From the IMG/VR virus record IMGVR_UViG_2547132271_000011: DNA of 3,146 bases. One strand, 5' to 3'. Below, in pieces: positions 1,084 to 1,272 of this stretch. A model generated the notes under the pieces. The model saw only the letters and a program-made list of their open reading frames with translations, was not told the DNA's origin and did no database searches. Numbering within the stretch: position 1 is the stretch's first letter; each line of letters starts with the position of its first letter. A program made the position numbers and the translations under genes. The DNA comes from a virus. Taxonomy: Duplodnaviria > Heunggongvirae > Uroviricota > Caudoviricetes.

Positions 1084-1090
1084 TCTGATT

Positions 1091-1133
1091 ACGAAAAAGA
1101 TATGTTGCGGGAGGCTTTGCCTCCCCAACATAT
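1091..1133 (-). terminator. Rho-independent terminator for minus-strand transcripts (candidate tR'-like terminator of the late leader / Q readthrough)
   Basis: Imperfect inverted repeat 1100-1114 / 1120-1133 (core GGGAGG / CCTCCC, about 14 bp with one bulge, 5-nt loop). On the minus-strand transcript it is followed immediately by CTTTTTCGT (complement of 1091-1099). On the plus strand the hairpin is followed by TAAGTGGC, so it is not a canonical plus-strand terminator. Confidence 0.5.
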
Positions 1134-1159
1134 AAGTGGCTCCCTCAAGCCACTTCCTT

Positions 1160-1272
1160 TAGGAGCACAACCTTGCTTCTAACTATATAAACCTTCTGTT
1201 ATATATTACCCTTTATTTTTGGGGGCGTTGCAACGCCCCATTTTTAATAATTTTTAGTAAACAACTGGCATA
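1160..1272 (-). promoter_or_regulatory. Expected location of Q-dependent late promoter pR' and qut site with short late leader
   Basis: Positional inference only: in lambdoid phages pR'/qut lies directly downstream of Q and the leader ends at tR'. The region is AT-rich with several -10-like hexamers on the minus strand (TAATAT at about 1208-1203, TATATA at about 1188-1183) and a TTGCAA at the palindrome centre, but I could not assemble a convincing -35/-10 pair with 16-18 bp spacing. Confidence 0.3.
1222..1256 (+). terminator. Rho-independent terminator for plus-strand transcripts (likely 3' end of the porin mRNA, shielding Q from antisense readthrough)
   Basis: Perfect 18-bp palindrome GGGGCGTTGCAACGCCCC (1222-1239), GC-rich stem, followed on the plus strand by ATTTTTAATAATTTTT. 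On the minus strand the same hairpin is followed by A-rich sequence, so the function is orientation-specific. Confidence 0.55.

Follow-up and report, generated by a model that had tools for sequence, protein, structure and literature searches.

What does a short spacer between two converging phage genes encode when a hairpin stands near either end of it, each followed by a run of T on one side only, and the two in 'crossed' order, the hairpin beside each gene facing the transcript that arrives from the other? The question arises in a 3,146-nucleotide stretch of Caudoviricetes DNA (IMG/VR record IMGVR_UViG_2547132271_000011; 'the window' hereafter means this whole stretch), where a porin gene of nmpC/lc type and a quuD-type antiterminator Q gene converge on a spacer of 189 bp (1084-1272). 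A reading made from the letters alone (the sequence-only reading) had taken the hairpins for crossed terminators with about 130 nt of potential overlap between the porin 3' untranslated region (3'UTR) and a phage late leader, an arrangement that might yield a short 6S-like leader RNA and possibly a 3'UTR-derived small RNA (sRNA). As judged from DNA identity, the spacer is ipeX, a region described before that makes up the folded 3' tail of the porin. We consider it highly probable that the account holds as a whole, namely that the spacer is the 3' end of a porin cassette, constitutes the IpeX 3'UTR and contains no late promoter. The + strand part of the sequence-only reading is right but already known (IpeX, with a terminator mapped before), making the finding a mostly known and ordinary one; the late-leader part is wrong for this phage type.

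The window is a lambdoid module of DLP12/PA-2 type, with the porin (+) converging on Q (−), and it is 92-99% identical to DLP12 of Escherichia coli K-12, to phage PA-2 (lc porin record J02580) and to many isolated lambdoid phages. The spacer is carried by 2,510 of 5,426 complete E. coli genomes; a 20-mer from it, scanned in 185,579 species genomes, hit E. coli records only, plus one chance match in a Desulfoscipio metagenome-assembled genome without further similarity. A 241-nt region that includes the spacer is 97% identical to both K-12 DLP12 and PA-2, and alignment of the spacer itself with K-12 574340-574528 and PA-2 J02580 2590-2778 needs no indels. In papers that cite Castillo-Keller et al. 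(2006), IpeX is described as a 167-nt RNA of the cryptic prophage DLP12 and of phage PA-2 that forms part of the porin transcript and represses OmpC and OmpF. Its locus is the same as ours, directly past the porin stop (of nmpC in DLP12, of lc in PA-2) and converging on a quuD-type Q. The K-12 version differs from the window in the loop of the terminator (UCUC vs. UUGC), in that of hairpin 1 (GUU vs. UUU) and in one pair of hairpin 3 (A-U vs. G-U); the porin gene is intact in the window and split by IS5 in K-12.

Because only point changes and no indels separate the two spacers, K-12 coordinates convert exactly to window positions, by x = 1084 + (574528 − coordinate). K-12 Term-seq places a porin-strand 3' end at 574367(−), with 46,656 reads (Adams et al. 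2021, Supplementary file 1), and in another condition at 574366(−), with 66,408 reads (Adams et al. 2021). These are window positions 1245 and 1246, which lie at the end of CCCCAUUUUU, in the U-run past hairpin 1222-1239. The 162-163 nt from the porin stop to the mapped end compare with the 167 nt published for IpeX. Term-seq thus identifies the + strand element near the Q stop as the porin terminator, and the suspected 3'UTR-derived sRNA is borne out by the literature, which knows it as IpeX. The element (1222-1245) has the marks of an intrinsic terminator: a stem rich in G+C (six of its seven pairs are G-C, −13.9 kcal/mol), a U-run (the + strand continues A-TTTTT-AATAA-TTTTT) and RNA 3' ends within that U-run. 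Bicyclomycin data from the same study add a strong Rho-termination region at 574331(−) (ratio 9.7, p 3e-36; Adams et al. 2021), that is, at window position ~1281, some 36 nt beyond the mapped end of IpeX. Termination after 1222-1239 is therefore probably composite with Rho, which stops transcripts that escape the hairpin within the last codons of Q. SMRT-Cappable-seq supplements held nothing at this locus.

A second porin-strand end, at 1136, bears on two hairpins at once. It falls after hairpin 1 and before hairpin 2, so the early end is not where the sequence-only reading had put it when it proposed hairpin 2 as a leaky porin terminator; the stem of hairpin 2 is moreover weak, and two of its pairs are lost in a major group of natural variants. 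Since no U-run follows hairpin 1 on the porin strand, the 1136 end is most likely a processing or exonuclease stop and not a product of intrinsic termination. Hairpin 1 plays a demonstrable role on the porin strand, and for annotation it marks a second porin-strand RNA end.

Folding and shuffling agree with a structured RNA. All three hairpins of the sequence-only reading (1100-1133, 1136-1153 and 1222-1239) are present and far stabler than chance. On the + strand the 189-nt spacer folds into five hairpins at −64.6 kcal/mol, where shuffled versions reach −36.8 ± 3.9 (z −7.15); the minus strand is also stable (z = −4.8). Hairpin 1 reaches −22.2 kcal/mol on either strand (z −6.5 to −7.2), a stability equalled by none of 200 shuffles. 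Of the proposed terminators, a consensus scan called the + strand element at 1222-1239 and passed over the other two: the minus-strand site was missed because a bulge interrupts its contiguous stem, and hairpin 2 was not called either. The stem of the latter, extended over 1134-1155, takes up two of the tail T's in pairs with A1134-1135. Neither terminator candidate is a bidirectional one. Hairpin 1 has its T-run on the minus side only (C-TTTTT-CGT, the T-run being 1098-1094), with AAGTGG on the + side, and hairpin 1222-1239 has it on the + side only, with CAAAAATAAAGGG on the minus side. Along the + strand the porin transcript would present, in order, the stable stem-loop 1100-1133, two medium hairpins, an accessible block (1184-1221) and a terminator that ends transcripts at 1245/1246 (Table 1).

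Table 1. Features of the porin-Q spacer and its flanks, in window coordinates.
Feature	Position	Strand	Basis or detail
Porin gene, nmpC/lc type, 360 aa	1-1083	+	Open reading frame list; Pfam Porin_1, E 1e-151
Porin 3'UTR, IpeX RNA region; 162 nt between stop codon and mapped 3' end	1084-1245	+	DNA identity, Term-seq
Single-stranded, A-rich linker that follows the porin stop; its complement provides the minus-strand T-run 1098-1094	1084-1099	+	Sequence
Hairpin 1, first stem-loop of the 3'UTR; candidate terminator stem on the minus strand	1100-1133	both	15 bp plus one bulge
Hairpin 2, GTGGC-N8-GCCAC (1136-1153) plus two A-U pairs	1134-1155	+	Full fold; −7.9 kcal/mol
Secondary porin-strand 3' end, 3 nt past hairpin 1	1136	+	K-12 Term-seq 574476(−), 23,469 reads
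Hairpin 3, 9 bp	1159-1182	+	Full fold
AU-rich block, nearly invariant, largely single-stranded; holds weak hairpin 4 (1184-1205)	1184-1221	+	
15-nt stretch AACCUUCUGUUAUAU, complementary to ompC mRNA −24 to −10 (AUAUAACAGAGGGUU) including the Shine-Dalgarno GAGGG	1190-1204	+	
Porin/IpeX intrinsic terminator: 7-bp stem 1222-1239, 4-nt loop, A + U5 (1241-1245)	1222-1245	+	Consensus scan
Antiterminator Q gene, quuD type, 127 aa, Q21 family	1273-1656	−	Pfam PF06530, E 2e-51
Mosaic joint, about 1297, within the last Q codons	1290-1300		DNA match to phage IdasGreatGrand, Q protein identity

Natural variation follows this fold. In 21 distinct natural variants of the spacer, taken from E. coli genomes, phages and IMG/VR and 87-99% alike, variation touches 8 of the 92 paired columns but 32 of the 98 unpaired ones (Fisher p = 6e-5), and 39 of 46 pairs are invariant. 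Fourteen of the 15 pairs of hairpin 1 never change, its loop and bulge being the parts that vary; hairpin 3 takes one-sided G-U/A-U changes that preserve pairing, with a variable loop; the terminator at 1222-1245 keeps its stem and proximal T-run in every variant and varies in the loop. Two inner pairs of hairpin 2 are broken in 8-10 of the 21, a major variant group included. Variation is highest in the linker at 1084-1099, where 6 of 16 columns differ. At the other extreme, the block 1184-1221 had, among 12 variants, one variable column of 22 in 1185-1206 and two of 15 in 1207-1221, and its mean unpaired probability of 0.4-0.6 is the highest of the RNA. Porin relatives in IMG/VR were 99%-identical copies only, so they added no divergent 3'UTRs.

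Two of the variants come from degraded prophage remnants between yedK and fliE, in E. coli SCU-111 and DLL7555. These remnants keep the porin gene, the whole 3'UTR (87-88% identical) and ybcM/ybcL/emrE, and have no annotated Q; their hairpins and the block complementary to ompC are intact, and their minus-strand T-run is down to TTTGA.

Several points weigh against the account as we favour it. The Term-seq ends were mapped in K-12, where nmpC is split by IS5 and the prophage is cryptic, rather than in the strain or phage that the window comes from. A search of the whole window against Rfam at a permissive E-value gave no match, there being no IpeX family in that database, and membership in the IpeX family is accordingly assigned from DNA identity. 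We looked for compensatory (double) changes among the 21 variants and found none, as may be expected from variants so much alike; support for the structure is therefore thermodynamic and from purifying selection, and not from covariation. On a home-made score of the d'Aubenton-Carafa type, which serves for relative comparison only, both window terminators fall far under the mapped tR' terminator of phage 933W (−5 for the + element and −11 for the minus element, against +24). Finally, the calling of a Rho region with a bicyclomycin read-through ratio of 9.7 raises doubt about the efficiency of the hairpin and U5 by themselves, and the 1245 end may in part reflect trimming back to the hairpin.

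If the + strand belongs to IpeX, is there also a late leader on the other strand, as the sequence-only reading had it? On that proposal a leftward late promoter lies just past Q, and a 6S-like leader starting there ends at hairpin 1 and its T5, overlapping the porin 3'UTR by ~130 nt. Precedent speaks for it, since lambda, the Stx phages and the related phage IdasGreatGrand all have a terminator-ended leader directly after Q. The Q of the window shares 77-80% identity with those of the Stx phages H-19B and 933W. In Stx phages, differential RNA-seq (dRNA-seq) has placed the start of the late promoter PR' 258 nt ahead of the 3' end at tR', and the RNA from PR' to tR' is processed to the 74-nt sRNA StxS (PMC7547250). 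In 933W the mapped start and its −10 (TATCAT) fall directly after the Q stop. The minus strand of the spacer also offers a −35-like TTGCAA (1233-1228), a −10-like TAATAT (1208-1203) and a −10-like repeat, TATAGT (1187-1182).

The homolog of the mapped promoter lies elsewhere, however. With the PR' core of 933W as BLAST query (−35 TTTACG, the −10, AAGAGTGGTTAC and the first hairpin AACCCGCCG...CGGG-T7), the window gave no match, and homologs of 83-85 nt (77% identity, E 6e-13 to 9e-11) were found in phage Perceval, K-12 DLP12 and PA-2, each on the late strand and located between the start of the porin gene and S/essD. In K-12 the homolog occupies 577,194-577,276 (7195-7277 of the compared stretch L001), with the essD start at 577,398; in other compared stretches it lies at 3634-3550 (L002, Perceval) and 1122-1040 (L004), and S88 gave a shorter match of 71 nt (E 1e-9) that runs to the end of the stretch compared. 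The homolog has its own hairpin-T terminator after it. Among 80 IMG/VR loci that carry this porin, 77 have the PR' element, on the opposite strand and 330-470 nt upstream of the porin ATG. Literature on DLP12 likewise gives its lysis operon a Q-controlled regulatory region and promoter of its own.

Within the spacer, a consensus scan for promoters found none, and the PR' homolog that would mark the 5' end of a Q-dependent late leader is absent from it. The −35-like TTGCAA falls in the porin terminator, whose variable loop it forms (variants have TTGAGA, TTGAAA or TGGAAA there), with a spacing of 19, 18 or 17 to TAATAT. As for the similarity of 'TAATAT ATAACAGAAGG', this sequence is the complement of the block that faces ompC, which accounts for it better. 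A spacer PR' built on this −10 and on TATAGT (1187-1182) as a pause-like element had first been proposed from an 'ATAACAG' match to IdasGreatGrand; it was dropped once BLAST put the true homolog upstream of S and the IdasGreatGrand segment proved to match the tR'/StxS end of the 933W leader and not its promoter. The minus strand of the spacer is without a late promoter; the one homologous to the mapped PR' of this Q subfamily sits upstream of S/essD, past the porin gene and outside the window, and we regard a late leader in the spacer as highly improbable.

The phages of lambda 6S RNA and StxS resemble the window in their Q (77-80% identical in the Stx case), and they do have the short RNA, ended by a terminator next to Q, that the sequence-only reading supposed here; they differ in where the promoter stands: in window-type phages, PR' and its terminator are upstream of S/essD and are parted from Q by an inverted porin cassette. 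That is, in prophages of DLP12/PA-2 type, found in nearly half of the complete E. coli genomes, the late promoter is beyond the cassette and not beside Q, and rules that look for PR' next to Q therefore fail.

How the porin came to stand there is indicated by a mosaic joint within the end of Q. IdasGreatGrand matches the window from 1297 rightward only, the identity of the window Q to H-19B Q stops at residue ~120 of 127, and the Q proteins of Stx phages are 17 residues longer, ending inside their own PR' promoter. With the joint at ~1297, the last ~7 codons of Q, the spacer and the porin gene make up one inserted cassette. To judge from these alignments, the cassette (a 'moron') is inverted between Q (codon ~120) and PR', and the spacer came with the porin and not with Q, a further point against a late leader in it. 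At the joint there is also a palindrome, GATATCC...GGATATC (1317-1294), listed by the scan as terminator-like on the minus strand.

Morons, in the sense of Hendrix and colleagues, are autonomous gene cassettes that have been inserted among phage genes and bring along a promoter and a terminator of their own. The porin cassette resembles them in its own CRP-regulated promoter, its own terminator, its sharp mosaic joints and its place between Q and PR'. Unlike the usual moron it has the opposite orientation to the operons on either side, carries a 3'UTR that acts as a regulator in its own right, and has its right joint inside Q, to which it supplies the last ~7 codons and the stop.

What, then, of the minus-strand element? 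As the spacer has no late promoter, only transcripts of the early-right operon that run through Q could cross it on that strand. The element (1133-1094) joins a very stable stem with an A-U-rich base to a C-U5 tail, and may halt read-through from Q before it runs antisense into the porin gene; we take this role of hairpin 1 as possible, optional and putative. The curated K-12 Term-seq lists have no Q-strand 3' end in the spacer, and a cryptic prophage may hardly transcribe that strand. Past hairpin 1 on the minus strand, 15 variants have CTTTTTCG, four have CTTTTA and the two remnants that lack Q have CTTTGA.

These data can be read as crossed convergent 3'UTRs without a late leader, in which hairpin 1 with C-U5 ends the early-right/Q operon and an overlap of ~150 nt (1095-1245) would have regulatory effect, through RNase III cleavage, through neutralisation of IpeX on induction or by insulating the porin gene from antisense read-through. 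The window, K-12 and S88 types all have five T behind a hairpin of such stability, and by the crude score the element is about as terminator-like as the experimentally verified one on the + strand. The T-run has also decayed in the two Q-less remnants with the hairpin left intact, as expected of a T-run that serves the Q strand only, though the remnants belong to a single lineage and so count as one event. Against this stand the missing Q-strand end in the K-12 lists, the C between stem and T-run, the A-U-rich base of the hairpin, and the four T then A that are all that phage ev243 and the chromosomal variants ML35, MLI107 and F8704 possess. We think this reading rather unlikely; a working minus-strand terminator at hairpin 1 is itself doubtful, and regulatory use of the Q/porin transcript overlap more doubtful again.

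The resemblance to a terminator could instead be incidental, with hairpin 1 serving the porin RNA only, by protecting a 3' or 5' end of the mRNA and of IpeX, and the linker being an unstructured spacer or RNase site whose complement is T-rich by chance. The sole mapped RNA end at hairpin 1 is the porin-strand one at 1136, the linker varies most where hairpin 1 is nearly invariant, and the spacer was inherited with the porin cassette, all of which fit this explanation. Five T right after a hairpin of −22 kcal/mol are nonetheless the classical signature of a terminator, and the missing K-12 end may reflect lack of transcription. We put incidental origin at somewhat under an even chance.

E. coli convergent genes reportedly have overlapping 3'UTRs or bidirectional intrinsic terminators. 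The spacer is like such pairs in holding terminator-like elements for both strands within a short distance; it is unlike the bidirectional terminators in having two crossed, one-sided hairpins, of which the + element alone is experimentally supported.

The most conserved part of IpeX, returning to the porin strand, faces ompC. Pairing was measured by windowed duplexes and a contiguous-run statistic; an unrestricted RNAduplex run of whole IpeX against the ompC and ompF leaders had given unrealistic global duplexes and was replaced. Against K-12 ompC, the stretch 1190-1204 can form 15 contiguous pairs (14 Watson-Crick and one G-U). A run of this length is reached by one of 5,000 shuffles, and among 5,000 natural decoys of 162 nt none attains it. 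A second stretch, 1210-1218 (CCUUUAUUU), pairs with ompC −32 to −24 (9 bp). The combined duplex is computed at −26.7 kcal/mol, an energy that 5 of 400 decoys also reach and none of the 400 shuffles does. For ompF there was only a 10-bp match (1204-1213) over the Shine-Dalgarno sequence, with P about 0.04 and an energy that is not significant, and comparison of the porin's own leader with IpeX gave nothing notable.

We present the predicted ompC complementarity as a lead, not a discovery. Reviews describe IpeX as lacking complementarity to its targets, and none of the papers covered by our literature search claims pairing (the primary 2006 IpeX paper lay outside that coverage). The computed match to the ompC ribosome-binding site is compatible with the lowering of OmpC and OmpF by IpeX. 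IpeX might be a classical antisense RNA, with 1190-1204 and 1210-1218 pairing to ompC −32 to −10 and blocking translation initiation, a proposal we make tentatively and doubt slightly more than we believe. It would lower OmpC by pairing its invariant block with the ribosome-binding site of ompC, and in the same antisense reading the shorter match at 1204-1213 would cover the Shine-Dalgarno sequence of ompF.

Repression of ompC is reportedly independent of Hfq and that of ompF is said to need it. Antisense action, if true, would explain this split by the difference between 24 bp for ompC and 10 bp for ompF, and would explain why the block is the best conserved part of the spacer. A Q-strand transcript crossing the spacer would then carry a copy of the ompC leader sequence and make a perfect sponge for IpeX during prophage induction. 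MicC and MicF are antisense sRNAs directed at the translation-initiation regions of ompC and ompF. IpeX would resemble them in that its block 1190-1218 is predicted to be complementary to the ompC leader including the Shine-Dalgarno sequence (15 + 9 bp), with the shorter 10-bp match at ompF; it differs from them as part of the 3'UTR of a phage porin mRNA and not a free-standing gene of the core genome, and in that reviews deny its pairing. For some twenty years IpeX has been quoted as regulating porins without any base pairing, and the statistically unusual 15 + 9 bp match makes the antisense idea directly testable.

The identities of the two flanking genes, as the sequence-only reading had given them, are confirmed by Pfam matches (Table 1) and by record annotations. 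The porin is labelled porin, OmpC or NmpC in matching E. coli and phage records; the Q gene is annotated as quuD in thousands of E. coli genomes, and the Q21 structures 6p18 and 6jnx are distant matches of its product. Further genes on the − strand of the window are ylcG, rusA, ybcO, ninE and ybcN/ninB.

Within the porin coding sequence, a 10-bp hairpin CATATTCTGAAACTCAGAATATG followed by ACCGTTTTTG (755-777, + strand) was listed as terminator-like, and the same site occurs in phage Perceval (4755-4777 of the compared stretch). On the − strand, a 43-aa open reading frame at 1000-1131 starts within hairpin 1 and runs antisense to the porin 3' end; it corresponds to what the PA-2 record of 1986 calls 'ORF1' and the 434B record a 'hypothetical protein', without support for gene status. 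Elements of the IS5 family strike the porin cassette repeatedly: one lies at porin codon 346 in K-12 (4592-5786 of the compared stretch) and in phage 434B, and another lies in the spacer itself in E. coli JB2, where its junction at window position ~1209 parts the conserved block from the terminator.

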